Assembly (NCBI GenBank): GCA_040771825.1
Contig: JAXGZG010000005.1
Span: 99,640 to 163,639, forward strand
Direction: 5' to 3'
Origin: Bacillota bacterium
GTDB taxonomy: Bacteria; Bacillota; Sulfobacillia; Fermentithermobacillales; Fermentithermobacillaceae
DNA: 64,000 nucleotides
This document shows, piece by piece, positions 23,063 to 62,854 of the stretch. Numbering within the stretch: position 1 is the stretch's first letter; every line of letters begins with the position of its first letter. Position numbers and translations under genes: made by a program. Below the pieces are notes generated by a model, which ran no database searches, was not told the origin of the DNA, and saw only the letters and a program-made list of their open reading frames with translations.

Positions 23063-23180
23063 TAACTCTCCTGCGGCAGCCTTAGGAACTGTCAGCCTGA
23101 CACTCGATATACTCACCCTTATCTCGCCCCCTACACATTTTGACATAATGCGATACGAATTTGCATGCATCTGGCCTTTA

Positions 23181-23215
23181 TTAGCGGTTTCGTTAGCGGT
23201 TTCATTAGCGGTTTT
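23181..23215 (+). promoter_or_regulatory. three tandem 12-bp direct repeats (TTAGCGGTTTCN) in the divergent intergenic region
   Basis: TTAGCGGTTTC occurs at 23181 and 23193, and TTAGCGGTTTT at 23205. The array lies between the regulator start (23062) and the small ORF / giant surface protein genes. It is a candidate operator for the adjacent wHTH regulator. Confidence 0.4.
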
Positions 23216-23291
23216 CGCTTTACAGTTAGAGCGGTCGGACCGTGGGGCCGGCTATCTTAACGTCGAACAGATTCTGAAGGGTGTTGGCGCG

Positions 23292-23579: not shown

Positions 23580-23580
23580 A

Positions 23581-38582: not shown

Positions 38583-38634
38583 ACCGCTGCCCCCTCAAAT
38601 GCTCTTCAAACACAGGATGCATTAGGTTCTTCAC

Positions 38635-41361
38635 TTAGTCACGAGTGAGGAAACTGTCAATCAGCGACCGCTTGAGCGTGTGCAAAACATCCCCTGAACG
38701 CACGCATGCGCCAAGGGTCGCATCAAAGGCATCGAGCGATTGAGTCACTTGATACTGTTCCGCGCGAGTCATGACTGGCAATGGGAAATCAGCAAAGTGT
38801 CTGAAGTACAGGTGGCGAACCTTACTTCCTTCGCATCGGTTCTCCACGAGCCTTCGGAATCTAGTAGTCTGCAGACAGCGGAATAGAAACTTCGGATCCA
38901 TGTCAGTCTCAATGATGAACCTGCCAATCCGCTGGTTAAGCATGCCCTCGTCGGAGTCACGCGTGAAGCAGACTCGACCCATAAAGCCATCTTCCAAAGA
39001 TTGCGCCGTCAGGTTGATCAATACCTGGTCTTGTTCAATGTACCAGTTCAGATTCTCAGTCCGCCACCAATCGGGCAATGTCACGGTCGCTGATGGCGAC
39101 CAATCTAGGGTTCCATCCGGAGCGAGATTACCCGGGCGTATTAGGCGGACACCGAGTTCGTCGTGCTTTTGGTATACCGCACTCGGAAAAGGGCGCCCAT
39201 TCTGCATCGTCGCCACTGCGTCGAGTCGCACAAAGTTCTCGTCGAAACACGCACGTTCGGGGGAAGGGATTATCCCATCAATCGCAGCAAGCCTGGCCGT
39301 CGATACACTCCTACTGAGAGAGGAATATCTCTGTTCTACCTCATCTAGGGCCCATAGAACCCCCGCGATCCGCCTCTGCTGGTCCAATGGGGGAAGGTCG
39401 AACTCGAATCTGGCAAGGCTACTCCAATTGGTACGAGGCGAAAGCGAGCCTGCAGAAGTCTCTACCGCATGCTGATAGAACCTCTCTGTGAGGCACAGGA
39501 AGGGTAGCAGCTCTGGCAAGAGCCGATGGTCTTTCGGCGCTAGAACGTAAATGTCTCCAGAAACCACCGCATCGAATTCCGCAACTGCCACTTTGCGTTG
39601 GTATGCCCGGCGCTTACCAAAAAGCACCTGCCCAGGACGACACCGGCGCCTGAAGGTGGTGCCATCGGCTATATTGCCCCACTTTCCGATATGAAGAGAG
39701 CCGGGCTCGATATGCTCCAGCCCGACGAACCGCTCCAACCCAGCCTCAATGGGACTGGATACCGTATCATTAAGGTTTTCGACAACATCCCCGAATCGAA
39801 CCAGCGGCCACGCGGCCTTGCCCTTCAGCAGTTCATGAGTATCCGCCGAGATAGAACTGTACTCCAAACCTGGTAACTCGAAGCCCTCAAGTATGCTTCC
39901 CAGAGCTTCTTCAAGACTGCTTCGTGAGCACAACCAAGCGTCTATGGATTCAGCCAGGGCAGAGATCCCGACTCCATTGGGCCTACCATTGGCAGGCGGA
40001 GGTTCTACGTACAGGGGAATACTGAGGTTGCTATCGTGTCTGAGGATTTCGGTAAGCTTGGCTACGTGGGCGAGGCCTTCAACCTCTCCGAATCCGCCAT
40101 AGGCTTGAGCAATACGCTCAATGTGGTCCGCAGTAAGGAAACTCTGGGCACGCTCACGCGTAACCTCGCCAACCGCATTGATAAAAAGGACTTTGCCTCT
40201 GCGCTCAGGAGGCTTCGATGTCTTGCAGATGATAACGCAAGCTTCCATCGGAGAGTTGTAGAAAAGGTTCGGCCCAAGCCCTATTACACATTCGATCAGG
40301 TCCGCCTCGATCAACTTCTGCCGCATCTCCGCTTCTTCCTGACGGAATAGAACTCCATGCGGGAAGAGGATGGCACACCGACCCGTGTCAGGCTTGAGAC
40401 TGGCCAGAATGTGCTGCCAGAATGCGTAGTCAGCTCTCCCCTGTGGCGGGGTACCGTAAAGATTGCGTCCCCATGGGTCTGAGGAAAAGGCATCACGGTC
40501 CCACTGCTTGATGGAATAAGGTGGGTTCGCCAGGATGACGTCGAATTGCATCAGGCGGTCTCCCTGAACGAACTTGGGTTCAGATAGGGTGTCGCCACGG
40601 ACGATCTGGAAGTCCTCGATGCCGTGAAGAAAGCAGTTCATCCGTGCGATTGAGGAGGTCATCAGGTTCTTCTCTTGGCCATAGAGCCTGACATTTCGCC
40701 ACTCCTGACCGTTACGACGCAAGTGAGCAATGCAGGACAACAGCATGCCTCCGGATCCGCAAGTGGGATCGTAAATGGACTCTCCCGGTTGGGGCTGGAG
40801 GAGCTCAGTCATGAGGTGGACTACCGTCCGGTTTGTATAGAACTCAGCGGCAGTATGACCTGAATCATCGGCAAATTTCTTTATCAAGTATTCGTAGCCC
40901 TGACCCAACTCGTCCTCGGGAAGATTGGCCAAGCTCAGTTCCAGGGCACTAAAATGCTCGACTAGATCCCTCAACATGGCATCATTGAGTCGATCCTTGT
41001 TCGTCCACTGGGCATCGCCGAAGATGCCGTACAGTTTTTCGGGATTCGCAGTCTCAATCGCCCGCATCGCGTTCTGGAGGGCCTGCCCGACATTGTTCGA
41101 CACCTGGCGAACCCGGCTCCAATGAGCGTCAAGAGGGATCTGAAAACGGTGGTTCTCCGGGTAAGCAGCAAACAGAGCGTCGCCGCCAGACTCTGCAAGG
41201 GCGGCCTCCGTCTCCTCATCAAAGACATCACAGAGTCGCTTGTAGAACAAAAGCGGGAATATGAACTGCTTGTAATCGCCGGCGTCTATAGTGCCGCGCA
41301 GCAAGACGGCGGCTCCCCAAAGGTATGATTCGAGTTGCTGTTGGGAGATTGGTCCGCTCAC
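38635..41361 (-). CDS. type I R-M methyltransferase subunit fused to a complete specificity subunit (HsdM-HsdS fusion)
   Basis: 908 aa with a GTG start in a GTGA overlap with upstream hsdM. HsdM_N-like QLESYLWGAAVLLRGTIDAGDYKQFIFPLLFYKR. SAM motif DPTCGSGGML and catalytic ILANPPYSIKQW. These are followed by two target-recognition domains with the conserved spacer LPPLDQQRRIAGVLWALDEV. Confidence 0.85.
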   Translation of the reverse strand: MSGPISQQQLESYLWGAAVLLRGTIDAGDYKQFIFPLLFYKRLCDVFDEETEAALAESGGDALFAAYPENHRFQIPLDAHWSRVRQVSNNVGQALQNAMRAIETANPEKLYGIFGDAQWTNKDRLNDAMLRDLVEHFSALELSLANLPEDELGQGYEYLIKKFADDSGHTAAEFYTNRTVVHLMTELLQPQPGESIYDPTCGSGGMLLSCIAHLRRNGQEWRNVRLYGQEKNLMTSSIARMNCFLHGIEDFQIVRGDTLSEPKFVQGDRLMQFDVILANPPYSIKQWDRDAFSSDPWGRNLYGTPPQGRADYAFWQHILASLKPDTGRCAILFPHGVLFRQEEAEMRQKLIEADLIECVIGLGPNLFYNSPMEACVIICKTSKPPERRGKVLFINAVGEVTRERAQSFLTADHIERIAQAYGGFGEVEGLAHVAKLTEILRHDSNLSIPLYVEPPPANGRPNGVGISALAESIDAWLCSRSSLEEALGSILEGFELPGLEYSSISADTHELLKGKAAWPLVRFGDVVENLNDTVSSPIEAGLERFVGLEHIEPGSLHIGKWGNIADGTTFRRRCRPGQVLFGKRRAYQRKVAVAEFDAVVSGDIYVLAPKDHRLLPELLPFLCLTERFYQHAVETSAGSLSPRTNWSSLARFEFDLPPLDQQRRIAGVLWALDEVEQRYSSLSRSVSTARLAAIDGIIPSPERACFDENFVRLDAVATMQNGRPFPSAVYQKHDELGVRLIRPGNLAPDGTLDWSPSATVTLPDWWRTENLNWYIEQDQVLINLTAQSLEDGFMGRVCFTRDSDEGMLNQRIGRFIIETDMDPKFLFRCLQTTRFRRLVENRCEGSKVRHLYFRHFADFPLPVMTRAEQYQVTQSLDAFDATLGACVRSGDVLHTLKRSLIDSFLTRD

Positions 41362-42857
41362 CTGAGTATCCCCTCCCGCTTGAGAATGGCTATAAGCTTC
41401 TCTTCTGCGGCAAAGGCCCTCTGAGCGCTCTCTTTCAGTCGGCGCATCGCTTCCTCCACAGTGAGCACTTCCGACTCGACTTGCGGTGTGATATAGCGTG
41501 GGATATTGAGGTTATGGTCGTTGGCAGCGATCTCGTCGAGCGTCACCACACGGGCGACACCCTCGACATCCTCATACCGCTGATACCAGCAATGGATACG
41601 ATCAACATGCTCGGGAAGGAGCTCGTTTTGTGCGCGACCGGTTTTGAACTCGCGGGAAGCGTCCACAAAGAGAATCCTGTTCCTTCGATCGTTCTTCTTT
41701 CGCTGGCGAAAGATGCAGATACATGCTGCAAGGCCCGTACCATAGAAAAGATTAGGTCCTAGCCCAATGACTGCTTCAAGAACGTCCATCTGTAGGATCT
41801 TCTTGCGGATGTCACCTTCCTTACCCATTCGGAAGAGCGCTCCGTGAGGCAGCACCACAGCCATACGTCCGGTGACTGCGGCCATGGACTTGATCATATG
41901 CTGAACCCAAGCGTAGTCACCGCTCTTGGAAGGTGGCATCCCGGCAAAGCTGCGACCGTAAGGGTCACCGGCCCAGACCTCCTCCCCCCATTTCTGGAGC
42001 GAGAACGGTGGATTAGCGATGACGCAGTCAAACGTGGCGAGATTGTCGCCAGAGAAAAACGCAGGCTGACGCAATGTATCTCCACGCACGATTTCGAAAT
42101 CCGAGGCCCCGTGCAGAAAGAGGTTCATCCGCGCAATGGCAGAGGTAGTGAGGTTCTTCTCCTGACCAAAAAGCTTGCCCCAGAGAGTACGGTCGTCCCC
42201 TTCATTGTCACAGACGTGGCGAACAGCTTCTAGAAGCATACCACCCGTTCCACAAGCGGGATCATAGATGGTCTCACCTTCCTTGGGGTCTAGGATCTTA
42301 ACCATAAGACGTACCACAGAGCGCGGGGTGTAAAACTCCCCCGCCTTTTTGTTTGCAAGATCTGCAAACTTCTTGATCAGGTACTCGTATGCCTGGCCCA
42401 TAATGTCGTCCTGGGCAGCTTGATTGCCAAGCCAGACTCGGGAGAAGTGCTCCATCAGGTCGCGGAGCAGCGAATCAGGCAAGCGCTCTTTATTGGTCCA
42501 CGGCGCATCACCAAAAATGCCGTAGAGCGTGTCTTGGTTGGCTCGTTCGATGTCATGCATGGCCCTTTGTAAGGCTTGACCAACATTGGCGGTGACAATA
42601 CGGACATCGTTCCAGTGGGCGCCCTCGGCGACCTGGAACCGATAGTTTTGGGGAAACCGGGCATACTCCTGGTCGCCGCCTGATTCGGCTAGCGCCGCAT
42701 CATATTCCTCGTCATAGACGTCCGATATGCGCTTGAAAAAAAGGAGCGGAAAGATATAGGTCTTGAAGTCAGCAGCATCAACTGTTCCGCGCAGGATGTT
42801 TGCCGCTTCCCAGAGGTGGGATTCGAGTTGGCTTTGCGTTGTGGAGCTAATAGTCAT
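41358..42857 (-). CDS. hsdM: type I restriction-modification system methyltransferase subunit
   Basis: Preferred ATG at 42857, 7 nt after GAGGTGA. QLESHLWEAANILRGTVDAADFKTYIFPLLFFKR, DPACGTGGML, VIANPPFSLQKW. Confidence 0.9.
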   Translation of the reverse strand: MTISSTTQSQLESHLWEAANILRGTVDAADFKTYIFPLLFFKRISDVYDEEYDAALAESGGDQEYARFPQNYRFQVAEGAHWNDVRIVTANVGQALQRAMHDIERANQDTLYGIFGDAPWTNKERLPDSLLRDLMEHFSRVWLGNQAAQDDIMGQAYEYLIKKFADLANKKAGEFYTPRSVVRLMVKILDPKEGETIYDPACGTGGMLLEAVRHVCDNEGDDRTLWGKLFGQEKNLTTSAIARMNLFLHGASDFEIVRGDTLRQPAFFSGDNLATFDCVIANPPFSLQKWGEEVWAGDPYGRSFAGMPPSKSGDYAWVQHMIKSMAAVTGRMAVVLPHGALFRMGKEGDIRKKILQMDVLEAVIGLGPNLFYGTGLAACICIFRQRKKNDRRNRILFVDASREFKTGRAQNELLPEHVDRIHCWYQRYEDVEGVARVVTLDEIAANDHNLNIPRYITPQVESEVLTVEEAMRRLKESAQRAFAAEEKLIAILKREGILR

Positions 42858-43056
42858 GGGATGATCACCTCTGATACGCATAACGGCGTCTCTTACGGAC
42901 ACCGCATCCCAAGGACGAAAAGTCGTCCAGCGATAGGGAGGGTCTGGTAACCTACATCACTTCTTCCCTACCATCACTCAGATTTCCTGTCGATTCAGAG
43001 GAGGTGGGGTGGACAAGATGGGGTGGACAGAATTGGTTGGCCATCTGACTAGAGAG

Positions 43057-46922: not shown

Positions 46923-48335
46923 TCATGAAGAAGGAACAAACCGCTCCAGCACGGCCGGCTTGTAGGCCAAGAAAGATTCCTCCTGGTACACCGCCCCATG
47001 CTTCTCGATATCGTGAGCCAGCCTCCTCAAGTCCTCGTTTCCTGCACTTAGGTAGTCTTCGGGGACTTCAATCATTCGACCGGTGGCACCTGGATGCGGA
47101 ACCACAGTAATAGTTGAATACTTGGCAGGCCCGGTAGCCAGGTCCGAGTCTGCCTGCCCCACGAGGTCGGCCGAGCGACTATCAAACCAGGCCAACAGCC
47201 GTTCGGCTATTCTCAGTCCTCCCAGGTCCCAATCAGTCCAGATGAGGACATCCATGCCTGAAAGCCCGCTCATCTTCTCTAGAAGGTAATAAAGCCCGTG
47301 CTTCGGCATGCCGTCGGTGCACACAACCAACCACCCTTCGCGGGCAACATTCTCTTCCGCAAGGATGTCGAGAGCAGCTCGGTTCTCAACCAAGACCAAC
47401 AGGCGAGCAGAGGTATCGACCGCAGAAGCCGCTCTGAGATCCCGAGTTGATATGGTCGGGACGGTACCCCAGATGGACTGCCCATCCACCGCAAGGCCTC
47501 CATGAAATGGGATCCAATAGAGAAGGTGAGCGCCTCTCACCCCGAGTTCCTCTAGGGAGATCCCGAGGTCCGATTCTGCCACCTGGGCTATGGGCCCGCG
47601 CAGACTCTCCAAATGTTTGACCGAATCTCGCTCCCCAAGATGAAGCCGGCCTGAAATCTCCTTGAACTCAAGGGAGACATCCTCCGGCTGAGAACCAAGG
47701 TAAGCGAAGAACTCAAGAATACGAAGGTAGTTGCGGCTTGCCTTGGGCGATAGGTAGTCAATCTGGGAGTCTACCTCCTGCAGAAAGAACACCGGTCCCC
47801 CCGAGCGAACCGCATCCAATTGCCTTGACAAGAACTGGTGAATTACCGGCCTGCGACACTCTGAGAGATACTTTTCTAGCCTGCCTGCCAAATCCTCTCT
47901 AGGACCTGGGGGAACGGTGCCAAACGCGGCGTCCAGATGCTTCCATCCAACTTCGGTCACGGTCAAGTAGGAACGAATTGGTGTGTTGGCACGGTCTAAG
48001 GTTTCTTCTCGCTCAAGTATGCCGAGTCCGATGAGAGAATCGACAATAGCCTGTGTGTTGACCTGCTTGCGGCCGCGTCTGGATAATCGGTTTCTGAAGG
48101 AACTCTCGCTAAGGCGCTTTGTGCCCTTCGTGCGTGACTCATTGAGCAGTCTAAGAGCGTCATGAACTCCAGCTTTCGATGACAAGTCAGCTACAAGGGC
48201 ATGGGATTCGCCGGATGGCCGCCTGGTTACTCGCCGTACCGGCTTGGCACCGGAACGTGAGGAGTTGTAGTAGGTTACGACCTCTAGCGACCCGGAAAGC
48301 CTTGTATCCGAGAATAGAGGCTCGCGCGAAGGCAC
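46923..48335 (-). CDS. JetD/MksG-like protein: wHTH-like N-terminal part plus C-terminal Toprim-like domain
   Basis: GTG start 7 nt after GAGGTGA. The C-terminus has LLVLVENRAALDIL...VVCTDGMPKHG...VLIWTDWDLGGLRIAERL, i.e. a conserved Glu plus DxD, as in the DUF2220-type Toprim of Wadjet JetD. Confidence 0.65.
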   Translation of the reverse strand: MPSREPLFSDTRLSGSLEVVTYYNSSRSGAKPVRRVTRRPSGESHALVADLSSKAGVHDALRLLNESRTKGTKRLSESSFRNRLSRRGRKQVNTQAIVDSLIGLGILEREETLDRANTPIRSYLTVTEVGWKHLDAAFGTVPPGPREDLAGRLEKYLSECRRPVIHQFLSRQLDAVRSGGPVFFLQEVDSQIDYLSPKASRNYLRILEFFAYLGSQPEDVSLEFKEISGRLHLGERDSVKHLESLRGPIAQVAESDLGISLEELGVRGAHLLYWIPFHGGLAVDGQSIWGTVPTISTRDLRAASAVDTSARLLVLVENRAALDILAEENVAREGWLVVCTDGMPKHGLYYLLEKMSGLSGMDVLIWTDWDLGGLRIAERLLAWFDSRSADLVGQADSDLATGPAKYSTITVVPHPGATGRMIEVPEDYLSAGNEDLRRLAHDIEKHGAVYQEESFLAYKPAVLERFVPSS

Positions 48336-48373: not shown

Positions 48374-51300
48374 CTACGCCTTGCGCCTGAAAACCCGGGT
48401 TTTGGAGCCTTCTTCCGGAGAACGATACACTCCAATCCCAAACTCTGTCTGGGCAAGATGGCTCTTGTTCAGCCTGTGAGAGATGATGATGTACTTACGG
48501 TCAAGTTCTTCTCTCAGGATTGCCGACAGCCTAAGCACGTTGGCCGGATCCAACGATTGATCGATTTCATCGAAAATGTAGAAGGGCCTACGGTACTCTT
48601 TCACCATTGCCAGAGTCAGTAGCGCAGCTATTGCGCTAGTCTCCCCTCCCGAACGGTTCCTTAGGAGAGGCTTGGGTTCTACGCCTTCGTACACCGACAC
48701 GTGTATGTTCAGTTCGAACTGAGCACCCTGTATCGGCTCGACCGTCAGATGCCCCCGCCAGCCAAAACGCTCCATGTACTTTTGGAAACGCGCTGAAATG
48801 TTAGTGAACGTCTGCTGCATAAGGTTTCTGAAGTTGTCTTGGGCGGCGCTTTCCTTGCCGGAGGCATCCTCGAAGGCGGCTTGCACGCGTTCAAGGTCGG
48901 ACTGTGATTTCTCAAATTGGTCCTTGGCCGCCTTGTAATCCTCCTCAGCGGTTGAGATAACGTTATCCTTCAGCGCCAAAACTGCGGGTTTGACTTCGGC
49001 CATGCGCTTAACCCACCTGGCGCGTTGCGCCTCGCTGGCGCCCCGTGAGGCCTTGGCAGCTTCAGAGCCCTTAGAACTTACTTCGTCGTCGGTCATCCCG
49101 GGCGTATCGAAGGCACTGCGCCACACATCGAAGATAGCGCCAGAAGACGCCTGTACGTCTCTGAGACTACGCCTCTTCTCCTCCACACGCTGGCGCAGGT
49201 CAGCCACCGTCGGCCCGACGTCAGTCAACCTAGATGATACATATTCAAGATGGATCCCGGTCTCGGAGATCTTCTGAGAGAGTCCGAAAACTGTACTGTT
49301 GAGCTCATCCCTCTCTTGCTGAGCGGCGTCCGCCTCTCTGCGGGCCTGGCCTTCCTTTGCCCTGAGTTCCGCCACGTTCTGCTTCATCACCGGCAGCTGG
49401 CCGTACTGCTTTAGTTTTTCCAACCGTCTCCCCGCAGCCTCGAGACTGTCCGCGGTTCGCGCTAGATGCACCTTCAAGTCGGTCAGGGATTCGCGGACGT
49501 TCGCGAGCTCACTTTGGAGCGCCTGAAATTGCTCTTCAAAGCCGGTCAACCGTGAAGTGTCATCGGGGATGCGATCCGCCAAGTCGTCTACCTGACTTCT
49601 GGCCTCTCGAGCTTTCGCCAAGCGAGCATCAAGTGTTCTGACCCGCTGTGAAAGAGTCTCCTTTTCCTTGAGAGCCTCGTCGACGTCTGCCTGTGCCGAC
49701 CTTCGCTCTTCCTCCGCCCTCTCCAAAGCCATTTCGTAAGCTTCCTGTCCCAGCCGGAAGTCGTTGGGGACCGAGTACCTCCGCCCGTACCTGTCATAGC
49801 GGTACCCGTCGGATGTATATGCAGTAAATCCTTTAGAAGCCATGGCCATAGCAGTTTCGTGGCCTTGGACAAAGATGACGGAGTCCAAAATCCGCGTCAG
49901 CATATCGGAGATGGACTGAGGAAGCCCGGTAGCCTGTGTAAGCACTCGGGTGACAGAAGTCACGTCCGGTAGCGGCGCGTCGGCTTCCCCGGCAACGCCA
50001 AGCATCTCAGCCTCACCGAAGTCACAGATAGTGTACTCTGAGTAGTCCACTAGGACGCGGCCGTCTTCCACCAAGACCGCCCACCGCAAGTCGCCTAGGG
50101 CACCCTCAAGCGCACGCCGCTTTTCTACCGGCATGCCGGTCGGAGGCGAAACACATTCGCCAAGCACCGCTGCTTCTGTTCCTCCGGCGATGAACCTGTC
50201 TCTAGCCTCTATTGCGTTAGGCGGCGTGGCAGTGCGCTGCTTCAAGAGAGCATCGACCTCGCGCTCTGCCTTCTGCACACGCTCCTTGCCCAGAGCCAAC
50301 CGCTCCTGAACCGCCGCGAGGCGTGGTCTCTCCCTTTCGAGATTACCCGCGATAGACTCGGGGCTTCCGTAGGATGACAGCACTTCCCGGGACCTTTTTA
50401 GGTCATCTGCCATCCGCTCCAGCGACTGCCGCAAAGACACTACCGACTCCTGAGACTTCCTAGTCGCTGCTTCCAGCTCCTCAACCTTGGTGCCGGCAGT
50501 GCGGATGTCTGCCTCCACTGAAGTTTTCTTCGCTTCAAGGTCCAAAACAGCACGCTGAGCTTCTTCCAAGGTCAACCCCTCAGAAAGCGCGACTTCAATT
50601 TCGGACACCTGCCTTTGCAGATCGTCCGCCTGCCTCCGGAAATCATTGCGCTGGGAAGTTGCCGACGCATGGAGACTGACCGCTTCTTGCAGGTCCTTGT
50701 CAGCTTCTCTGCGCTCGTCTTCCAACCGAGCTTTCTCGAAGCCGTACGTCTCCTTTTCCTTCAGTAGATTAGATTGCTTCTCCGTCTCCTCCGAAAGCCG
50801 GGCCGCGGAGCTTCTCTCTTCTTCGATCGCCTGCTCCAACGCATGAATGTGCCTTATCAACTCATCTTGAGCCACTGAACGCCGCAGACCGTCATATTCC
50901 GCCGATAGCGTCCTGAACTCTTCCAAGTTCATCCAGGCCCTCTCTTTCTGAGCAAGCCCGTCGCGAAGCGTCACGTTCTGCATCTGGGCATTCCTGAGTT
51001 CCGTCAGCGCAAGGTTCTTGGCGTCAAGAGTATCCTGCCATCGCCTCTCCAGATCCTCCAAGCCCAGGAACTGCTTCATTGTCTCGTACCGCAACCTGGG
51101 CTTCATCTGGACCAGCGCCGTGCTTTCGCCCTGTTGGATGAACATGAATCGATCGTCGGGCTGAATGTTGAAAGGCGGACGTCGAAAAATGTCCTCGTAC
51201 TCCTGGTGCGTCCGGTAGACCTGACGCTTGCCGTCTATCGCCGTGTAGTATCTGGAGAACGGCCTGGCGTTCTCGTATCCAAACTCCAACCCCAGCACAA

Positions 51301-51583
51301 CCGTTTCCGGCCAGTCCGGATTCCAAAGATCATCGCGTCTATTCAGGACGGTGAGTTCAGCCACTGCCCGCTTGTTCACCCTGCCGGTACGCTCATCCAG
51401 GTAGCTTTGATGCAAGTCGGAAGGGGGGTCGCCCATCAGAGCCTGAATCATCCGGGCAACAGTGCTCTTCCCGGAACCATTGGGGCCAAACATGATCACT
51501 TCCTTGACATCGGCTCCGCCGAGGCTGATGGCGTGGTTTCCGTAAGCCCGCACACCTGACAACCGCAACTCAAGGGGTATCAT
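48374..51583 (-). CDS. SMC-like ATPase (JetC/MksB position)
   Basis: 1069 aa. Walker A GPNGSGKST at the N-terminus. Two long coiled-coil arms flank a ~130-aa globular middle segment. C-terminal SGGETS signature, Walker B FYIFDEIDQSLD and IIISH. Confidence 0.85.
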   Translation of the reverse strand: MIPLELRLSGVRAYGNHAISLGGADVKEVIMFGPNGSGKSTVARMIQALMGDPPSDLHQSYLDERTGRVNKRAVAELTVLNRRDDLWNPDWPETVVLGLEFGYENARPFSRYYTAIDGKRQVYRTHQEYEDIFRRPPFNIQPDDRFMFIQQGESTALVQMKPRLRYETMKQFLGLEDLERRWQDTLDAKNLALTELRNAQMQNVTLRDGLAQKERAWMNLEEFRTLSAEYDGLRRSVAQDELIRHIHALEQAIEEERSSAARLSEETEKQSNLLKEKETYGFEKARLEDERREADKDLQEAVSLHASATSQRNDFRRQADDLQRQVSEIEVALSEGLTLEEAQRAVLDLEAKKTSVEADIRTAGTKVEELEAATRKSQESVVSLRQSLERMADDLKRSREVLSSYGSPESIAGNLERERPRLAAVQERLALGKERVQKAEREVDALLKQRTATPPNAIEARDRFIAGGTEAAVLGECVSPPTGMPVEKRRALEGALGDLRWAVLVEDGRVLVDYSEYTICDFGEAEMLGVAGEADAPLPDVTSVTRVLTQATGLPQSISDMLTRILDSVIFVQGHETAMAMASKGFTAYTSDGYRYDRYGRRYSVPNDFRLGQEAYEMALERAEEERRSAQADVDEALKEKETLSQRVRTLDARLAKAREARSQVDDLADRIPDDTSRLTGFEEQFQALQSELANVRESLTDLKVHLARTADSLEAAGRRLEKLKQYGQLPVMKQNVAELRAKEGQARREADAAQQERDELNSTVFGLSQKISETGIHLEYVSSRLTDVGPTVADLRQRVEEKRRSLRDVQASSGAIFDVWRSAFDTPGMTDDEVSSKGSEAAKASRGASEAQRARWVKRMAEVKPAVLALKDNVISTAEEDYKAAKDQFEKSQSDLERVQAAFEDASGKESAAQDNFRNLMQQTFTNISARFQKYMERFGWRGHLTVEPIQGAQFELNIHVSVYEGVEPKPLLRNRSGGETSAIAALLTLAMVKEYRRPFYIFDEIDQSLDPANVLRLSAILREELDRKYIIISHRLNKSHLAQTEFGIGVYRSPEEGSKTRVFRRKA

Positions 51584-52869
51584 GAGGCACCTCCGTCTTC
51601 GCTCGAGCCGCCACTGGCGGTGATTTCCACTTCTGCCTCGGCGTCTTGTACGGCTTCATCCACTGCCTCGTCACCCGCCTCTTCAGCGTCTGTGGCTGAC
51701 ACCTGGTCCATTGCCAGCACCTGCTCGAAGTTGACCTCGACAAACTCTCGCAGATGGTCCACGATTTCGGGCCCTGGTCTCAGGTTCAAAGCCAGCGATA
51801 GGGCCATCTTCCCCGCAGGAGTCATCCCGAGTCTCCCTGTTCGCGAGATGGAGATCCACCCCTTCTTCGCCAGTACGGAGAGAGTTCGGGACAAAAACCG
51901 GCTCGGGCCCTTGACCCTCCCTGTGAAAACGGGCAACAGTTGGGAACGATTGAGCCTTCGCCGCCCGGACTCGCACAGATACCAGATGTAGGCAGCCAGA
52001 GCTACCGCGGCGGAGGTCACTGGGTTCAAACCCGCCTGGAACACCCTGGAAGCGTCCACCAAGGCCACAACCCTATCGTCGGAAACCTTTATCCGAAAGT
52101 AGCGGTCGAAGCCCTGTCCCAGGCAGTACGACTCGAAGCCGTTCAGAGAGTCCTCACCCAAGGAGCGCAGCGCGGAAGCGACGGTCGGGGGCCGGCCGCA
52201 GGCGGTACCCACAATCACCCTACGTATCAGCTTCTCGTATTTGGGTTCCGGCCCGGAAAAGTCAAACAGACTGGGCGGAAGGACTACCTGCTTCCTATCC
52301 TCACGGCGGCCTGACCCGAAAAACGCCGCCACTTCGGCAGGTCTAAAGTCTCTGCCCTGCGACTCGGATACAATCTTTTGAAGAAACACGGGACCCATGG
52401 ACTCCATGCCCACCGGGGTCGGCTCGTAAGTATACTGGCCATCGAATTGGGACTTATCGACCCAATAGAGCCGCTCAAGTTCGTCAAGCGCCCGCGCCAC
52501 ACTCCTGCTTGCGCTCCGCTCCGCGGAGACAAACTGTTCAATAATGACGGACTTGGGCACGGGGATGGAGTTGTCCTGCCGCCACTTGGCGACAAACAAG
52601 AACACGGCAATGGCTTGGGCGGAAATGGGAGACTCCCTAGAAATCAGCTCTCGGGAAGCGATCCCTAGAGTTACGGTACGGCCGTCGGCGAGAACACGGA
52701 AATACCTACCAAGACACGAGGACCGAATGTAAGAGAAGAAGCCCGTGAGGTCATCGTCACCGATAAGCCGTTGAACCGCGCTTTGAGTGATGGACTTGCC
52801 TAGACTTGTCCCACACAGGATAGCCCGGATGGCCAGATCATACTTATCGTTATACATCGCGATGCTCAA
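51580..52869 (-). CDS. internally duplicated winged-helix protein (JetB/MksE/ScpB position)
   Basis: 429 aa. Residues ~5-150 and ~205-350 align to each other (YDLAIRAILCGT...GRYFRVLADGRTVTLGIASR vs YEKLIRRVIVGT...DRYFRIKVSDDRVVALVDAS). Acidic C-terminal tail. ATGA overlap with the ATPase gene. Confidence 0.55.
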   Translation of the reverse strand: MSIAMYNDKYDLAIRAILCGTSLGKSITQSAVQRLIGDDDLTGFFSYIRSSCLGRYFRVLADGRTVTLGIASRELISRESPISAQAIAVFLFVAKWRQDNSIPVPKSVIIEQFVSAERSASRSVARALDELERLYWVDKSQFDGQYTYEPTPVGMESMGPVFLQKIVSESQGRDFRPAEVAAFFGSGRREDRKQVVLPPSLFDFSGPEPKYEKLIRRVIVGTACGRPPTVASALRSLGEDSLNGFESYCLGQGFDRYFRIKVSDDRVVALVDASRVFQAGLNPVTSAAVALAAYIWYLCESGRRRLNRSQLLPVFTGRVKGPSRFLSRTLSVLAKKGWISISRTGRLGMTPAGKMALSLALNLRPGPEIVDHLREFVEVNFEQVLAMDQVSATDAEEAGDEAVDEAVQDAEAEVEITASGGSSEDGGAS

Positions 52870-54238
52870 GGGCTTCCATCACCGCCTTTCTTCTTATCAG
52901 GATCTCGCCCAACATCACCAATCTGTCAGACTCATACACTTCACACGAGTGCCTGCCCGAGGCCATGCCTTTGGTGACTACCTCGCCGGCTGCAGCGGCG
53001 GACATGAGAATGTCATCCCATCGTTCTACAGCCTTCAGAAGATGGGACTCGTGGACTTCGCCTTGGATTGGCAGAGAGGCTAGTACCCGATCGACGTAGG
53101 GAGCAAAGTCTTCGTCAAATTCCCCTTCTTCGTAGGAGTTCAGGTCTCCTTCGATGGAAGACGTAATCTCAGGTTCCGGCGGTATTGCTCCCGGGGCGGC
53201 GTGTTCTCTGCCCAAAGTATCTGCTACAAACTCCTCCAGCTGATCGTAGCTGGGATAGCCCGGAAGGTATATCGGGAGCGTCACATCGCCAGCCTCTCCG
53301 GCCATTTCAAGAAGCCTATCTCCGGCGAACACACTACAAAGCCAATTATAGAACTTGGTCTTGTTGATCAGGTTCATCTCCGAAAGGGCCTTCCCGGTAG
53401 AGTGGGAGAGCACTCCGGTCATTGCTTTGAAAGCCACCCCGAGGGCTCCTGTCCGTGCCTTCTCGACCCTATCGACGATAGGCAAAGCGTACCTAAAGCC
53501 CTGCTTCTTTTGGTCATCCAGAACACCTTGCACAAAATCGTACCTGTCCAGTATGGCCTTTATCTGTTCTATGGCCACGCCTTCCATTATGTAGTCATAG
53601 AGGCGGCGCTCTACGTCCCGGTAACCCTTCTCCAGGAAGCTGAGAGCGCGGTTCAGACTACCGGCTTCATAGCCCTTGCCTTCATAGGCACCCATGAGCT
53701 CGATCTCACGCTGGCTCTGGAACAAAAGCTGCTCTATGGGGTTTTTCCGGTGGAAGCCATACCAATCCTGAAGAACACGGTGAACAGTGCCGAGGAGGCG
53801 GCTTCCCTTGGTCGTCAACTGGACGGACACATCCTTGTTGATCAGGCTCAGGCGATGGCAAGTCGTCAGAAAGCCCGAAGGATCCGCTTTTGGTGCGGCG
53901 CCCCATCTCTCCTTGAACCGGTTCTGGAGGCCTATGTGGCCTCCTACCCCTCCGCCGGTGGCGTACTCTTCTTCCTGTATCAGGAGTAGCATCTTAACTG
54001 CGTCGATTAGCTTCTCCGGGTTTCTGCCGTCATCGCTGACTGCATAAGCGAGACTCGCAAGATCAGACAGGTCCCGCGCGGCCAGTATGAGGGCGTTGGG
54101 AGAATCACCCGTTAGGAAGTCGGTCTTTTGGACCGATGGATCCTCCTGACCCTGCTCCATGTGGGCTGCGGCTTCTCCCGGCTTGGGCGCCATCGGAAGC
54201 GCAGGTTGGTCTTGAAAATCGAACTGGTCAGGAGACAT
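52850..54238 (-). CDS. hypothetical protein in the JetA/MksF (kleisin) position
   Basis: 462 aa, first gene of the operon, GGAGG SD 8 nt upstream. Overlaps the next gene by 20 nt. I recognise no named motif, so the call rests on position and size only. Confidence 0.4.
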   Translation of the reverse strand: MSPDQFDFQDQPALPMAPKPGEAAAHMEQGQEDPSVQKTDFLTGDSPNALILAARDLSDLASLAYAVSDDGRNPEKLIDAVKMLLLIQEEEYATGGGVGGHIGLQNRFKERWGAAPKADPSGFLTTCHRLSLINKDVSVQLTTKGSRLLGTVHRVLQDWYGFHRKNPIEQLLFQSQREIELMGAYEGKGYEAGSLNRALSFLEKGYRDVERRLYDYIMEGVAIEQIKAILDRYDFVQGVLDDQKKQGFRYALPIVDRVEKARTGALGVAFKAMTGVLSHSTGKALSEMNLINKTKFYNWLCSVFAGDRLLEMAGEAGDVTLPIYLPGYPSYDQLEEFVADTLGREHAAPGAIPPEPEITSSIEGDLNSYEEGEFDEDFAPYVDRVLASLPIQGEVHESHLLKAVERWDDILMSAAAAGEVVTKGMASGRHSCEVYESDRLVMLGEILIRRKAVMEALEHRDV

Positions 54239-54288
54239 CAGAAAACCTCCGGAGAAAGGTCCGTGTGAACGACTATTGTAACAAGTTG

Positions 54289-54297
54289 ATTATACCA
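54289..54297 (-). promoter_or_regulatory. extended -10 promoter element (TGGTATAAT) for the SMC/Toprim operon
   Basis: The reverse complement of 54289-54297 reads TGGTATAAT, ~50 nt upstream of the 54238 start codon. No convincing -35 element. Confidence 0.3.
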
Positions 54298-54642
54298 TTT
54301 GGGGAGGCACACCCTCCGATACTTCTGATTCCTACTGCTTGATCTTGGCACCCTTACTTCGGGGTCTTTGAGCGAGTGACGATTTTCGCCTTCATGGTCT
54401 GCTCTTTGTCGTTTCACGACACCTAACCTCAGCTCAGCGCGGGCGGTGCGGAGCATAGCCGTAGATGAAAGCGTACACGTCGAGGCCACACCCAATAACG
54501 GATATGCTTTCATCTCGGTTCAGGGCGTGAACCCACGTGCCTACTCGTTTGGCGTCGGTGACCGTTCTTCGGGGACGTCCTATTTGACACGCAAGGCGGC
54601 GCTGTGGTATGTATTTCTCTCAGTCTCCACGGAGGTACCGCC

Positions 54643-55764
54643 ATGACCTTGTCGGTGCGGAAGTATTGGGTGCTCGCGTCCAAGGGGTTCATGCAGAACC
54701 TGCAGTACTCCGCGTCGCACCTCATCAACACCCTTGCAAGCGCTATCTTCGGTGTCATCTACATTTACCTGTGGAAAAGCGTTACGCCCCCCGCCGGGTT
54801 TGGGGAGTACACACCTCACCTTGTGACCTCGTACATCGCGGTCAATCAGGCTACAATGTGGTTCACCCAGTTCCCGCTTCGCGTCCACGTAAAGATTAGA
54901 GACTCCATCCGCTCCGGCAACATAGCCACAGAACTCACGCGCCCCGTGGACTTCTTTTGGTACAGAATCACCACCGAATATGGCTCAATGGTGTACAGCC
55001 AAATATTCCGGGGCCTCCCTGTCGGACTAATGCTGTCTGCATTTGGCCTGTACCTCCCGCAAAGGGCAACGACTTGGGGATGGACCCTGCTCGCCCTACT
55101 ATTCGGCGCCTACATTTCGATTGTTGAGTCCTACCTGGTGGGCGTTGCGGCCTTCTGGACCACCGAGACTAGGACGGCCTGGTATGTGGTATCCACTTTG
55201 AACCTTACGCTTGGCGGAGGATCGATGCCGCTGGAGGTGCTGCCGGCCCCCATCTATCAACTGGCAAGGTGGTCCCCCTTTGCGTGCCTCACATACAATC
55301 CTTCGCGCATCTACCTTGAACTTTCTGGACCCGGTCCGATCCTGCCGGCTTCGGCGTGGGCTGTCGCCCTCACGGTGTTGGCGCGCCATGTCACCCGCAT
55401 CGCACGAGCGAAACTGGAGGTGCAGGGGGATGAAAACCGCCATGTCCCGCGTTTTTGCCGGCATGCGGCTCTACTGGCTGCTGGTCTCGGCAAGCGTCCG
55501 GGCCAAAATGCAGTACAAACTGGACTTCATCTCGTCCGTCATCATACAGGCAATCATGGGAGTATACGACTACTTCGTAATCGCAGTGGTGCTGTGGAAG
55601 TTCGGGTCCATAAAAGGCTGGGACATCAGGGAGATCGGCATCCTCTATGCGGTGTCCCGCGTGGGGTTCGGGATCTACCGGACTATAGGCGAGGAACTAG
55701 AGCGCTTCGAGAACTACATCGTGGGAGGCAACTTCGACTCGGTCCTCATCCGACCTTGGCCTAG
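54643..55764 (+). CDS. ABC-2 family transporter permease (stop apparently lost at a G5 run)
   Basis: ATG at 54643 after GGAGG. Typical ABC-2/DUF990-like membrane protein up to ...RIARAKLEVQG. The remaining ~110 codons are Arg-rich and lie out of frame over the next permease gene. A G6 instead of G5 at 55425-55429 would give ...EVQGG-stop in an ATGA overlap with the next start. Confidence 0.65.
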   Translation: MTLSVRKYWVLASKGFMQNLQYSASHLINTLASAIFGVIYIYLWKSVTPPAGFGEYTPHLVTSYIAVNQATMWFTQFPLRVHVKIRDSIRSGNIATELTRPVDFFWYRITTEYGSMVYSQIFRGLPVGLMLSAFGLYLPQRATTWGWTLLALLFGAYISIVESYLVGVAAFWTTETRTAWYVVSTLNLTLGGGSMPLEVLPAPIYQLARWSPFACLTYNPSRIYLELSGPGPILPASAWAVALTVLARHVTRIARAKLEVQGDENRHVPRFCRHAALLAAGLGKRPGQNAVQTGLHLVRHHTGNHGSIRLLRNRSGAVEVRVHKRLGHQGDRHPLCGVPRGVRDLPDYRRGTRALRELHRGRQLRLGPHPTLA

Positions 55765-58984: not shown

Positions 58985-60004
58985 TCACGCTTTGCCAAGC
59001 GGGTACGCCCTCATCACTCTCAGCGCTCTTAGGGTATTCCATCGGCTGGGTTCGCCTGTCTTCTCCATGTCGAAGTGAACGTTGCCCGTGTGTTTATGCT
59101 GCAAGGGCCAAGTGCCGTCGGAGCGCCTCTTTTTCAGGAGGACGGCCAACGCCGGCGCCATCCTTTCATCGTAAAGGACTCCCGCCGCCTGGAAGTAATC
59201 CAATCCCCTTAGAATGTCGTAGTGCCACCGCGAAGGATACGAAAGCATTAGGAACTGCGGGTTAATGACCTCGTTTGTATGATCGGAGAGGAACAGACGG
59301 TGACGAAGGATGAACTCTATGCCTCGCGCTTCAGCTTGCCGGATTCCCTCAAGCCGTGCGTGGACCCAAGCAGCTTCAGGAAAGGCGGTAGGGATAGACG
59401 CATGGTCTTCCGCCGCTATGGTCTCTTGCTCTGCCCACCTTCGAAACTCAAGCAAGCCCTCCAGCACCGATATCGTGGTGTGCAGAGAAGAGTGGGCTGC
59501 CCCGCGGATGAACTCGCAGTTCCAACCGTAGCCCGGCATCTCTACTCGCAGCAGGTAATCGACGATGCCTTGAATTCGCGGGTCAGCCACACGGAAGTAC
59601 GAAGCGTAGCCCAAAGCCATCCCGTTGATACACACGTCAGGCGGACGCTTGGTTACAGCGTAGTTGACCGCACCCTCACCGTCTATAGACAGATCGAACA
59701 TCATGTGGACCGCCCGTCGCGCAGAAGGGTTATTACGAGGGAGTCCCAGGCTTTTGAGGTCAAGTAACGTGTAGTGGGTTGACGTCCACTTAGGCTGGTA
59801 AAAACCCCTGCCCCAGTGCCCGTTAGCGTTCTGCCTTGCAAGAAACTGTGCTCCCCAGCCTTCCTGGCTTATGCGGCGCTGGAGCGCGGCAAGCGTTGGA
59901 GGATCCGCGCCCAGCAAGTCCCTATGTGCCTGGTACTGGATGGAAACGTCGCCTTCCAGAAGCCACGATATGATTGCCTCTTTGGGTCTCTGTAGAGGGT
60001 TCAC
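58985..60004 (-). CDS. hypothetical protein, possibly alpha/alpha-toroid (prenyltransferase/terpene-cyclase-like) fold
   Basis: 339-aa soluble ORF with repeated aromatic-rich helices (GWG..F...Q..NGHWG). The fold assignment is tentative. Confidence 0.4.
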   Translation of the reverse strand: MNPLQRPKEAIISWLLEGDVSIQYQAHRDLLGADPPTLAALQRRISQEGWGAQFLARQNANGHWGRGFYQPKWTSTHYTLLDLKSLGLPRNNPSARRAVHMMFDLSIDGEGAVNYAVTKRPPDVCINGMALGYASYFRVADPRIQGIVDYLLRVEMPGYGWNCEFIRGAAHSSLHTTISVLEGLLEFRRWAEQETIAAEDHASIPTAFPEAAWVHARLEGIRQAEARGIEFILRHRLFLSDHTNEVINPQFLMLSYPSRWHYDILRGLDYFQAAGVLYDERMAPALAVLLKKRRSDGTWPLQHKHTGNVHFDMEKTGEPSRWNTLRALRVMRAYPLGKA

Positions 60005-60345: not shown

Positions 60346-62820
60346 CTAGTTCCAGGCAGGCTCCTCTGTACCGCTTGGACCCACTCGATAGGGCATCCAC
60401 ACCAAAGCGACTGCTTTCACGCTGATGTCCTTCTTGGCAGGCCTTACGACATACTGTTGGAAGGTTTCATTCAGCGGGCTAAGCTTCTCCGAAAGTTCCA
60501 GGGTCTCGCGCCGAAGATCATCTTCTAGCACCTTCATGTCATTCTGGAGAGCTGCCAAAGACTCTGCCGAGCGCTGAACATCGGTTTGCTCCTTCATGTA
60601 CCTGCTAGCACCCCTGGCCGCTGTCGTCGCTCTCCCCAAAGTGGACGTGCTTCGGGCCTTGGTTCCAAGGAAGGACGTAAGAAGCGTAGAGCCTATCGAA
60701 ATCGCCGTCTGCATCTGTTGCTGCTTAGCCTGCATCTTCTCCCGCTCAACGGCGGCCTCGGCTCGACGGATCTTATCCATCAAGGAGTTCGTCTTGGCCG
60801 CGTACTTCTTCCGGATGGCGTCCACAGCTTCTTCGCGCTTTTCGCGGAAATCCTGGTCAAGTCGCACTCGGAAATCGCGCTCAGACTCACCCATCCTGGA
60901 AAACGCTTTGGCCACCGAACTCTGCATGAGGACTATCTGCTGCGTCCTATAAAGCCAATCTGCGAAGGCCTTGGCCCACTGGGCATAGCTTCTGGATGAT
61001 CCGGCCGAAGCAGCCAGGGGAGCGAATGAGACACCTGAGAGGCCGGAAGTCTCCAGGTCGGAGATGCTACTCTCAGCGGGGAATGCGGCATCCCAGTCGA
61101 TGCCCTGTACATCATCGGGAACAGGAACGGCAAAGGAGAGCTCCTCGGTTGAGTTGACTCCGCTTTTCATGTCAAGGAAACGTACAAGCGAATTGCCCAG
61201 TGTGGCAGGACGATAAATGAATTCGTCGGGCCTCCCGCGCCCACGTAGCGGTAGGAAGTACTGTCTCACGTCAGGCGGCAGCACCGGGGGATCAGAGGCC
61301 GTCAGACGCTGAGACGGGTAAGCGGGCTCTGGAGGCGCCCATACGGGCTGTTGTGCCGGCGGATACCCAGGCGCTTGCGGCGGCTGCCAGCTTGTTAGCT
61401 GGGGTGACTTCTTGCTCACAGCGAGGCTTTGTATCTGACTTCGCGACAACGGCCCCGCTAGATATGACATGACCCACCGCGTCTCGAATACAGTCGGCGC
61501 ATCTTCCCGAACGTTGTTCATGAGGAAAACTCTTTGCCCCAAACCGGCAAGGATTGCCTCCATCTTGGCCTTATCAAACCGCGCGCCCTGAGATAGGGCG
61601 GCTCCCTCCAGTCCTTCCAAGACCCTCATCTTATCGCGCTCGGTCTGCAGCCTTCCTATGAACCACGTACCTGTGTTGGAGAGACCCTTGTAGTCCAGAT
61701 CCACAGGGTTCTGAGTGGTCAGCATGACTCCAAGGCCAAACGCTCTAGCCTGCTTGAGAAGAGTCAGCAAGGGAGCCTTGGTCGGAGGGTTGGCCACAGG
61801 GGGGAAGTAGCCGTAGATCTCATCCATGTAGAGCAGTGCGCGCAGGCTTGTGGTGCCGGTCTGAACGCGGGTCCAGCTAAGAACCTGGTTAAGCAGAAGT
61901 GCCACAAAGAACATCCTCTCAGCCTCAGACAGATGGGCTATGGAGAAGATAGAGATCTTAGGCTTCCCCGTTGGCGTGTGGAGGATGCTGTCTACATCAA
62001 GAGATTCCCCCTGCATCCAAGCTGCAAAACCCGGAGAAGCCAACAGGTTGTTGAACTGAATGGCTAAGGCAAATCGGTCCTTGGATGGGTAGAAAGATTC
62101 CAGACTCATCACGCCAATCTGGCCAACCGGCGGAGAGTTTATCTGCTGTATTAGCGTGGCAAGGTCAAGATCCTGCCCTCTCTGCCACGCGTACGAGAGT
62201 ATAGTGGAGATAAGGATATGCTCCCGGCTCCTTATCGGATCCGCCGTGATGCCTACGAGCCCGAGGAGACTGCTTGCGGTACCGCTAACCCGCTCATTCA
62301 AGAGTTCCATATCCTCGATGATTGCTCTTGACGGAGCCGCGAAGGACTTGAGAATCGATATCGGGACACCCGCCGTGCTGCCCGGAGTGTAGATCACAAA
62401 CTCGGCAGAATCACGAAGCCGTTTTATCCGCTCGCCGTCCTGACCCCAAGAGGCCAGGCCCTTCTTCCATAGTTCCGCTTGGGATACCGCGTACTCCTCG
62501 GGAGACATATTCTTACGTCTCGCATCATCCTCGTTGATCCATGGCCTGAAGTCCTCGGGACAAAGGTCAGGGAACGTGAGGAGGAGATTCGCCATATCTC
62601 CTTTGGGGTCAATGACAATGGCGGGAACACCGTCTATGGCCGCTTCCTCCAAGAGGGCAACGCAAAGACCCGTCTTGCCACTTCCGGTCATGCCGACGCA
62701 GACTCCGTGGGTGACCATGTCTTTTGAGCTGTATAGGAGGTACCCATCACCGAGGCTTCTCTTTTCTAGATCATAGGGGCGACCGAGGTAGAAGACGCCC
62801 AGTTTCTCGTATGAGTCCAT
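60346..62820 (-). CDS. HerA/FtsK-like P-loop ATPase with Pro-rich linker and long coiled-coil C-terminal region
   Basis: Preferred ATG at 62820, 8 nt after GGGAG. Walker A GMTGSGKTG, Walker B LRALLYMDEIYGY. Linker SWQPPQAPGYPPAQQPVWAPPEPAYP. The C-terminal ~350 aa include a KKYAAKTNSLMDKIRRAEAAVEREKMQAKQQQMQ coiled coil. Confidence 0.7.
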   Translation of the reverse strand: MDSYEKLGVFYLGRPYDLEKRSLGDGYLLYSSKDMVTHGVCVGMTGSGKTGLCVALLEEAAIDGVPAIVIDPKGDMANLLLTFPDLCPEDFRPWINEDDARRKNMSPEEYAVSQAELWKKGLASWGQDGERIKRLRDSAEFVIYTPGSTAGVPISILKSFAAPSRAIIEDMELLNERVSGTASSLLGLVGITADPIRSREHILISTILSYAWQRGQDLDLATLIQQINSPPVGQIGVMSLESFYPSKDRFALAIQFNNLLASPGFAAWMQGESLDVDSILHTPTGKPKISIFSIAHLSEAERMFFVALLLNQVLSWTRVQTGTTSLRALLYMDEIYGYFPPVANPPTKAPLLTLLKQARAFGLGVMLTTQNPVDLDYKGLSNTGTWFIGRLQTERDKMRVLEGLEGAALSQGARFDKAKMEAILAGLGQRVFLMNNVREDAPTVFETRWVMSYLAGPLSRSQIQSLAVSKKSPQLTSWQPPQAPGYPPAQQPVWAPPEPAYPSQRLTASDPPVLPPDVRQYFLPLRGRGRPDEFIYRPATLGNSLVRFLDMKSGVNSTEELSFAVPVPDDVQGIDWDAAFPAESSISDLETSGLSGVSFAPLAASAGSSRSYAQWAKAFADWLYRTQQIVLMQSSVAKAFSRMGESERDFRVRLDQDFREKREEAVDAIRKKYAAKTNSLMDKIRRAEAAVEREKMQAKQQQMQTAISIGSTLLTSFLGTKARSTSTLGRATTAARGASRYMKEQTDVQRSAESLAALQNDMKVLEDDLRRETLELSEKLSPLNETFQQYVVRPAKKDISVKAVALVWMPYRVGPSGTEEPAWN

Positions 62821-62854
62821 GCGCTCAACTCCCATGAGGTTTATGTGCGTAGTA

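Follow-up and report, generated by a model that had tools for sequence, protein, structure and literature searches.

We analyzed a stretch of 64,000 nucleotides from a Bacillota bacterium of the family Fermentithermobacillaceae (assembly GCA_040771825.1, contig JAXGZG010000005.1, positions 99,640 to 163,639), in the following termed the window. A gene on its minus strand, at positions 51580..52869, encodes a protein of 429 amino acids. As judged from sequence, the gene is part of a Wadjet (JetABCD or MksBEFG) operon encoding a kleisin, a KITE (kleisin-interacting tandem winged-helix element) subunit, an SMC (structural maintenance of chromosomes) ATPase and a Toprim nuclease, and structure models support the identification of the 429-amino-acid protein as the KITE subunit JetB, present as two copies joined head to tail. 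Taken together, the evidence makes it probable that this is a rare JetABCD operon related to type III Wadjet, in which the JetB homodimer is replaced by a fused two-copy chain of independent origin. The concept of a fused KITE is already known from type II Wadjet (bioRxiv 10.1101/2025.03.10.642339). What is new is its occurrence in a lineage that is related to type III and is not type II.

JetB is an Internal Tandem Duplication

It had been noticed from the sequence of the window, in what we refer to as the original prediction, that the first and second half of the protein align over about 140 residues. This was borne out for the same residues. When residues 9-141 were compared with residues 210-343 by BLASTP, 39 of 134 positions were identical (29%) and 53% were positives, with one gap and E = 8e-17. 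The Smith-Waterman score of one half against the other was 163, while 500 shuffles of the C-terminal half gave 31.6 ± 5.0 (z = 26). Profiles of the two halves, termed lobe 1 and lobe 2, were made from 12 family members and aligned by hhalign with a probability of 99.5% and E = 3.5e-23 over 151 columns, covering both winged-helix domains (WHDs) of each lobe. The self-alignment, named beforehand as a test of the duplication, was thus significant by BLASTP as well as by hhalign. No direct repeats were found at the DNA level within the jetB gene, which indicates that the duplication is old.

The doubled open reading frame was found unbroken in 12 of 12 full-length homologues of 392-429 amino acids, all from independent assemblies and with identities of 37-57%. 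Nine of these proteins were in the first alignment and three came from an exhaustive search (below); five genome loci were included in addition. The junction between the two halves was in frame and conserved. Since the reading frame is uninterrupted in all 12 homologues and at the five loci, it does not represent a frameshift or an assembly artefact. The original prediction had also proposed a survey of homologues for single and doubled size. All complete members of the family were doubled, except for two single-size relatives.

Both Halves are Modelled with a KITE-like Fold

AlphaFold2 models were made from an alignment of nine sequences, with a predicted local distance difference test (pLDDT) score of 66 and a predicted TM-score (pTM) of 0.37, and from an alignment of 13 sequences, with a pLDDT of 72.5 and a pTM of 0.66. 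In both models the pattern H-H-H-E-E (H, helix; E, strand) occurs four times, corresponding to four consecutive winged-helix domains, two in each lobe. These are located at residues ~8-70, 84-150, 209-270, and 286-349, with additional helices following the second and fourth of them. The linker at residues 185-206 has a pLDDT below 50 and is predicted to be disordered, as is an acidic tail from about residue 390 to 429.

A Foldseek search against the PDB gave chain D of 9QE0, the type II JetB of Neobacillus vireti, as the first match for both models (E = 1.5e-5 and 5e-4, probability 1.00), colinear over 412-415 columns. Single lobes matched ScpB, MukE, Nse1/Nse3, MAGE, and type I JetB (8DK1_E and 8AS8_C) with a target-normalized TM-score of 0.4-0.57. 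In contrast to this fold-level likeness, a search of PDB sequences with the family profile did not find 9QE0 and returned a single chance match (E = 1), so homology to the solved KITE proteins is visible at the level of fold only. The two halves had been suggested to be KITE subunits, as opposed to each matching an unrelated fold. This is in agreement with the fold matches of both models, with the position of the gene in a Wadjet operon, and with the match of lobe 1 to the PADLOC model JetB3.

Each lobe thus resembles the KITE dimers MukE2, ScpB2, type I JetB2, and Nse1/Nse3 in having the fold of two winged-helix domains (Foldseek probability ~1.0; 6JUV, 3RPU, 7DG2, 8DK1_E, and 8AS8_C). These proteins are separate chains that form non-covalent dimers, whereas the lobes are covalently joined in the protein analyzed here. 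In Nse1/Nse3 the KITE halves diverged as separate genes, while here the divergence took place inside one chain.

Organization of the Operon

The four genes of the operon lie close together on one strand, in the order jetA, jetB, jetC, and jetD. The first gene, at 52850..54238 on the minus strand, encodes a JetA-like kleisin of 462 amino acids that matches PADLOC JetA3 with E = 7.6e-9. Its stop codon overlaps the start of jetB. The jetB gene has a TTG start, included in the 429 codons, and a stop codon at 51580-51582; an alternative ATG start is located at 52857, four codons past the TTG. The jetB stop codon overlaps the ATG of jetC as ATGA. Gene 3, jetC (48374..51583, minus strand), encodes an SMC ATPase of 1069 amino acids with a match to Pfam SMC_N (6.5e-19), and gene 4, jetD (46923..48335, minus strand), encodes a Toprim nuclease subunit of 470 amino acids, which matches Pfam DUF2399 above the gathering score (1.9e-8) and JetD_C with E = 4.5e-3. 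The operon was assigned to Wadjet because the gene of the 429-amino-acid protein is flanked by those of a JetA-like kleisin and a JetC SMC ATPase, with a gene for a JetD Toprim nuclease coming after them. By analogy, it would restrict small circular DNA such as plasmids.

In PADLOC, JetB3 matched the 429-amino-acid protein over residues 32-184 only (E = 7.6e-7; E = 4.9e-6 for lobe 1). JetC matched JetC3 (PDLC00580, 1068 positions) with E = 4e-39, compared to 6e-6 for JetC1 and 0.67 for JetC2. JetD matched JetD3, JetD2, and JetD1 with E-values of 2.9e-10, 1.2e-9, and 2.7e-7, respectively. Neither JetA nor JetB had a significant match to a Pfam or NCBIfam family. The weak Pfam match of JetB to HVO_A0261_N is to a generic winged helix-turn-helix (wHTH) family and falls below the gathering score. 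The operon belongs to a very rare Wadjet lineage without annotation, whose JetA and JetB are missed by current Pfam and NCBIfam models. The same order of the four genes was kept in five genome loci (L003-L007), where a JetA-like kleisin with 47-61% identity is encoded directly upstream of the doubled jetB.

Features of the Two Lobes, the Junction and the Tail

Lobe 1 is encoded at 52261..52869 (minus strand) and comprises residues 1-203, with WHD-1 at ~8-70, WHD-2 at ~84-150, helices at 152-184, and the disordered linker. Lobe 2 (51685..52260, minus strand; residues 204-395) contains WHD-3 at ~209-270 and WHD-4 at ~286-349, both modelled with a pLDDT of 80-91, and helices at 351-395. An acidic, disordered C-terminal tail follows (51583..51684, minus strand; residues 396-429, pLDDT 25-33) and is poorly conserved across the family.

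The lobes differ in their conservation. Mean identity within the family is 57.6% for lobe 1 and 46.9% for lobe 2, lobe 2 being the faster evolving. Lobe 1 keeps a helix with the pattern SQGR.F...EV..FF that is common to single-size JetB proteins. Lobe 2 instead has an extension with the pattern LRPGP...L.EFVE..F and the acidic tail. No PADLOC model matched lobe 2 alone.

A motif, L201-F202-D203, is found at the junction (52261..52269, minus strand) inside the low-confidence linker, where residues 185-206 correspond to 52252-52317. Among 13-14 tandem proteins L201 and F202 are invariant and D203 is nearly so. In the single-size proteins P0015 and P0018-P0021 an L-x-[LF]-F-[DE] motif is located near the C-terminus, after an acidic linker; the chains end in QLAMFD (P0015), QLGFFEGTVD (P0018), QLMLFEGGND (P0019), and QMMLFDEGGD (P0021). 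About six residues past the junction motif lobe 2 starts with PKYE, the counterpart of the N-terminal NxRYDL. A former C-terminal motif followed by a new start is the hallmark of two complete genes having been fused end to end. As lobe 2 is without the motif, each tandem protein has a single copy, whereas a homodimer would carry two.

We speculate that the L-F-D motif may be a docking peptide, by analogy with type I JetB, in which an IFDR motif binds the aCAP domain of JetD. The type I element is described as an N-terminal element or helix of JetB. The junction motif was for this reason rejected as the equivalent of IFDR, and the analogy between the two is only compositional.

The Tandem JetB Family is Rare and Closest to Type III

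The family profile was used for an exhaustive HMMER search over 1.84 billion (1.84e9) representative proteins. Nine proteins were found, three of which were full-length and doubled, four were fragments, and two were single-size. One of the single-size proteins, P0015 (213 amino acids, E = 2.8e-27), is encoded between partial JetA-like and JetC-like genes on a 2-kb contig. The other, P0018 (229 amino acids, E = 5.3e-5), is the JetB of Ammoniphilus oxalaticus, whose operon is clearly type III (JetA3 1e-66, JetB3 6.5e-36, JetC3 1.4e-137, and JetD3 1.8e-55). Since the profile retrieves single-size JetB proteins including P0018, the tandem family is tied to type III by sequence. A search for further type III JetB proteins with P0018 gave four proteins, all of them single-size or truncated.

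The likeness to type III is found in several parts of the operon. Type III JetB (PADLOC JetB3, PDLC00570) was the only defence-system model matched by the tandem protein, on lobe 1, and the length of JetC (1069 amino acids) is that of the JetC3 model (1068 positions). Lobe 1 shares with P0018-type JetB the SQG[RG]...EV..FF helix and the L-F-D/E motif, and the two operons have the same four gene families. Type III JetB is, unlike the protein analyzed here, single-size (213-232 amino acids; profile of 228 positions) and would homodimerize. The identity to P0018 is also low, about 21% for lobe 1 and 15% for lobe 2, and the two JetC proteins are 22.5% identical. The family is best described, from these comparisons, as a rare and divergent sister lineage of type III.

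The gene arrangement at the A. oxalaticus locus differs. There jetD (L002:12001-13290) is located on the strand opposite to jetABC, is convergent with them, and shares 4 bases with the end of jetC. In the window and in L003-L007, jetC and jetD are encoded on one strand, with jetD as the downstream gene.

The hosts of the family are Bacillota genomes assembled from metagenomes, including Candidatus Fermentithermobacillaceae, and one bin labelled Ignavibacteriales. The JetB from the Ignavibacteriales-labelled locus (L007, JBLNBR010000027.1) is 57% identical to that of the window, while the other four genomes are Bacillota. This locus could be the result of horizontal transfer or of a binning error.

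Comparison with the Tandem KITE of Type II

The JetB of N. vireti type II Wadjet (nvJetB, 388 amino acids; PDB 9QE0 and 9QE1) was described as a tandem KITE, in which four winged-helix domains replace the KITE dimer (bioRxiv 10.1101/2025.03.10.642339). WHD-1 and WHD-3 touch each other centrally, the lobes bind different parts of the kleisin, and the inter-lobe linker is longer. The lobes are substantially diverged and were aligned by structure. The authors consider most or all type II JetB proteins to be tandem (bioRxiv 10.1101/2025.03.10.642339). The assumption of the original prediction that a fused KITE is not standard for Wadjet or Mks systems therefore does not hold for type II. In the literature searched, no description of a tandem KITE outside type II was found, and the term was met only in the N. 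vireti preprint.

The JetB of the window resembles nvJetB in being one chain of four winged-helix domains, in having two lobes joined by a longer linker, and in having a gene flanked by those of the kleisin and the SMC protein within a JetABCD operon. The two proteins differ in that there is no detectable sequence kinship between them, with 9-10% identity in the structural alignment. Furthermore, its lobes can be aligned with each other by plain BLASTP (E = 8e-17), unlike those of nvJetB. JetC is about 300 amino acids shorter than the JetC2 models of ~1360 positions. A long JetC whose coiled coil is extended distal to the elbow is a characteristic of type II, the families of which are DUF2397, DUF2398, TIGR02680, and DUF2399. 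None of the type II models (PADLOC JetA2 and JetB2, Pfam DUF2397 and DUF2398, TIGR02677 and TIGR02678) matched JetA or JetB of the window at E ≤ 1, and the models DUF2398, TIGR02678, and JetB2 did not match any of 13 members of the JetB family. By sequence the operon is thus not type II. Only JetD is ambiguous with respect to type, its matches to DUF2399 and JetD2 being about as good as that to JetD3.

Origin of the Fusion

A neighbor-joining tree was made from 24 lobes together with P0015 and P0018, using 185 core columns. Mean identity was 57.6% between lobes 1 and 46.9% between lobes 2, compared to 22.9% between lobe 1 and lobe 2. The mean identity to P0015 was 30.6% for lobe 1 and 22.5% for lobe 2, and to P0018 it was 20.7 and 15.3%, respectively. 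Lobe 1 and lobe 2 were each monophyletic in 100% of the bootstraps and their internal topology was congruent. This pattern argues for one duplication event before the family branched, not followed by gene conversion.

Identity amounts to 23-29% between the two lobes and to 9-10% between the lobes and nvJetB. As each lobe is nearer to its sister lobe than to the JetB of type II, an independent and younger fusion is suggested, and the sequence comparisons make it likely that the fusion arose independently of that in type II. We lean slightly toward the more specific view that KITE pseudo-dimers became covalent on at least two occasions, in type II and then more recently in a rare, type III-related Bacillota lineage, with L-F-D kept as one internal linker motif.

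Alternative Explanations

Some of the observations weigh against this account. The bootstraps placed the two lobes together in 58.5%, lobe 1 with P0015 in 24%, and lobe 2 with P0015 in 17.5% of cases; with such low branch support the duplication could predate P0015, followed by a later loss of a lobe. The dissimilarity to type II JetB rests on negative results with hidden Markov models and on percent identities from Foldseek. JetD matches type II and type III models nearly equally, and its Pfam match is to DUF2399, which we take to be built on type II-like JetD. The PADLOC matches of the window proteins are weak compared to those of the bona fide type III system (JetA 7.6e-9 versus 1e-66; JetB 7.6e-7 versus 6.5e-36). 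Because all of these matches are weak, the term type III-derived is to be read as closest to type III and not as confident membership. Finally, the global superposition of the models on the kleisin-bound 9QE0_D is poor (TM-score 0.27-0.34, root mean square deviation 12-19 Å), and the larger alignment of 13 instead of nine sequences gave no better global fit. The models thus support the domain order and the KITE fold but not the inter-lobe geometry. Of the covalent pseudo-dimer that was originally predicted, the fused two-KITE chain is hence confirmed, while the pseudo-dimer geometry is drawn by analogy.

Four other explanations were weighed against that of an independently fused JetB. Two adjacent jetB paralogues could have been joined by an error in sequencing or assembly, or the reading frame miscalled. 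Apart from the source resembling a metagenome-type assembly nothing speaks for this, and we give it almost no credence in view of the continuous reading frame and the conserved in-frame junction in 12 homologues of 37-57% identity and in five GTDB genomes. Hardly more probable is a generic transcription factor with multiple wHTH domains that by chance is encoded beside an SMC-like ATPase and is not a KITE protein. It would account for the weak Pfam matches to HVO_A0261_N, MarR, GntR, and LexA_DNA_bind, and for fold matches that include MecI, BlaI, and MarR-type repressors. However, at every locus the gene occupies a fixed slot, with a kleisin-like gene on one side, an SMC gene on the other, and start and stop codons that overlap; the protein matches PADLOC JetB3 and three family members match Pfam MksE. 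The top fold matches are moreover KITE proteins, over two winged-helix domains per lobe and not over a single wHTH.

The two remaining explanations accept a tandem KITE and are unlikely to a lesser degree. In one of them, which we consider rather improbable, the tandem has a single origin shared with type II, and the operon is a very divergent relative of that type. The whole protein indeed finds its best structural match in the type II tandem JetB, with colinearity over the four winged-helix domains, and JetD matches DUF2399 and PADLOC JetD2 almost as well as JetD3. A shared origin predicts that lobe 1 is at least as close to lobe 1 of type II as to its own lobe 2. The lobes were instead found to be 23-29% identical to each other (E = 8e-17) and ~10% identical to type II JetB, without similarity detectable by hidden Markov models. 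JetA, JetB, and JetC match type III models only or best, the length of JetC is that of JetC3, and the single-size relatives connect the family with a genuine type III system. The other explanation takes the duplication as real and the protein as something else than a simple pseudo-dimer; lobe 2 would have obtained a new role (for instance, binding of JetD, JetC, or DNA, or resistance to decoys) or the tandem would itself dimerize, giving a stoichiometry other than one per kleisin. We regard this as unlikely, although less firmly so. In its favor, lobe 2 evolves faster (46.9 versus 57.6% mean identity), no longer has the SQGR...FF helix or the L-F-D motif, has acquired another extension together with an acidic tail, and is not recognized alone by any JetB model, and the arrangement of the lobes in the models does not fit onto 9QE0_D (TM-score ~0.3). 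On the other hand, lobe 2 keeps both winged-helix domains (pLDDT 80-91) and aligns to lobe 1 across both, and the type II tandem KITE, whose structure is solved, has lobes that are just as diverged and nevertheless fill both KITE positions on one kleisin.

Proposed Mechanism and Implications

For an independently fused JetB, we infer by analogy with the type II tandem KITE and with KITE dimers a stoichiometry of one polypeptide per kleisin. KITE proteins attach to the middle region of the kleisin and dimerize through their N-terminal winged-helix domains. Each JetA would hold a single tandem JetB at its central part, with WHD-1 and WHD-3 meeting as the central contact of the pseudo-dimer, lobe 1 placed on the N-proximal kleisin segment and lobe 2 on the C-proximal one. 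The tandem JetB and the JetC heads would jointly clamp DNA while loops are extruded with the energy of ATP. When the DNA is a small circle, a stalled motor dimer would present bent DNA to JetD, which would be followed by cleavage. Presentation of bent DNA to JetD by a stalled motor dimer was shown for Wadjet types I and II (bioRxiv 10.1101/2025.03.10.642339, among other sources).

The fusion most likely took place once, at the base of a small clade of Bacillota, and started from a jetB of single size that resembled type III. Lobe 1 would then have kept the ancestral features, including the formerly C-terminal and now internal L-F-D motif, while lobe 2 would have diverged faster and gained its different C-terminal extension and the acidic tail. 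Such a fusion would fix the stoichiometry and allow the two KITE positions to specialize. If L-F-D docks JetD or JetC, the fusion would also halve the number of copies per motor and hard-wire the asymmetry of the KITE positions.

Tandem KITEs allow the four winged-helix domains of an SMC motor to be mutated one at a time, and they bear on the question of why symmetric KITE dimers turn asymmetric, as in eukaryotic Nse1/Nse3 and in nvJetB. A second fusion that is apparently independent and has diverged less would show that this transition has happened repeatedly and is, for that reason, probably favored by selection. If so, the lineage would represent a natural 'young' model of the specialization of KITE halves, perhaps under pressure from anti-Wadjet inhibitors, in which the lobes can still be matched position by position from sequence. 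In other respects this is an unremarkable defence operon, situated in a defence island.

Genomic Neighborhood

The GC content of the operon is in line with that of the remainder of the window. When the complete operon was compared with a plasmid collection by blastn, no match was obtained, and thus nothing supports a plasmid origin. Two small open reading frames on the minus strand, 54238-54513 and 54510-54758 (91 and 82 amino acids), abut the start of jetA. They were rejected as genes of the operon, being not conserved in related loci, without family matches and of odd composition, and are probably spurious.

A type I restriction-modification cluster is located on the minus strand at 35598-42902, about 4 kb from jetD, and the region for this reason looks like a defence island. 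The make-up of the cluster is unusual, with HsdR (994 amino acids), a fusion of HsdM_N, N6_Mtase, and Methylase_S (908 amino acids), and a separate HsdM (514 amino acids). Another gene, at 60346-62835 on the minus strand, encodes a HerA/DUF87-like ATPase of 829 amino acids (PADLOC mad8 1.8e-12, HerA models down to 3e-9, Pfam DUF87 1.5e-5). The adjoining open reading frame of 339 amino acids (58985-60004) had no match to a defence model. These two genes may be part of another defence system. Finally, the region 20246-28578 contains a gene on the minus strand for a regulator of 974 amino acids with AAA_16, TPR, and Trans_reg_C domains, beside that of a surface protein of 1665 amino acids. The latter has Listeria-Bacteroides repeats, a YDG domain, and three SLH domains, which fits a cell envelope of the Bacillota type.

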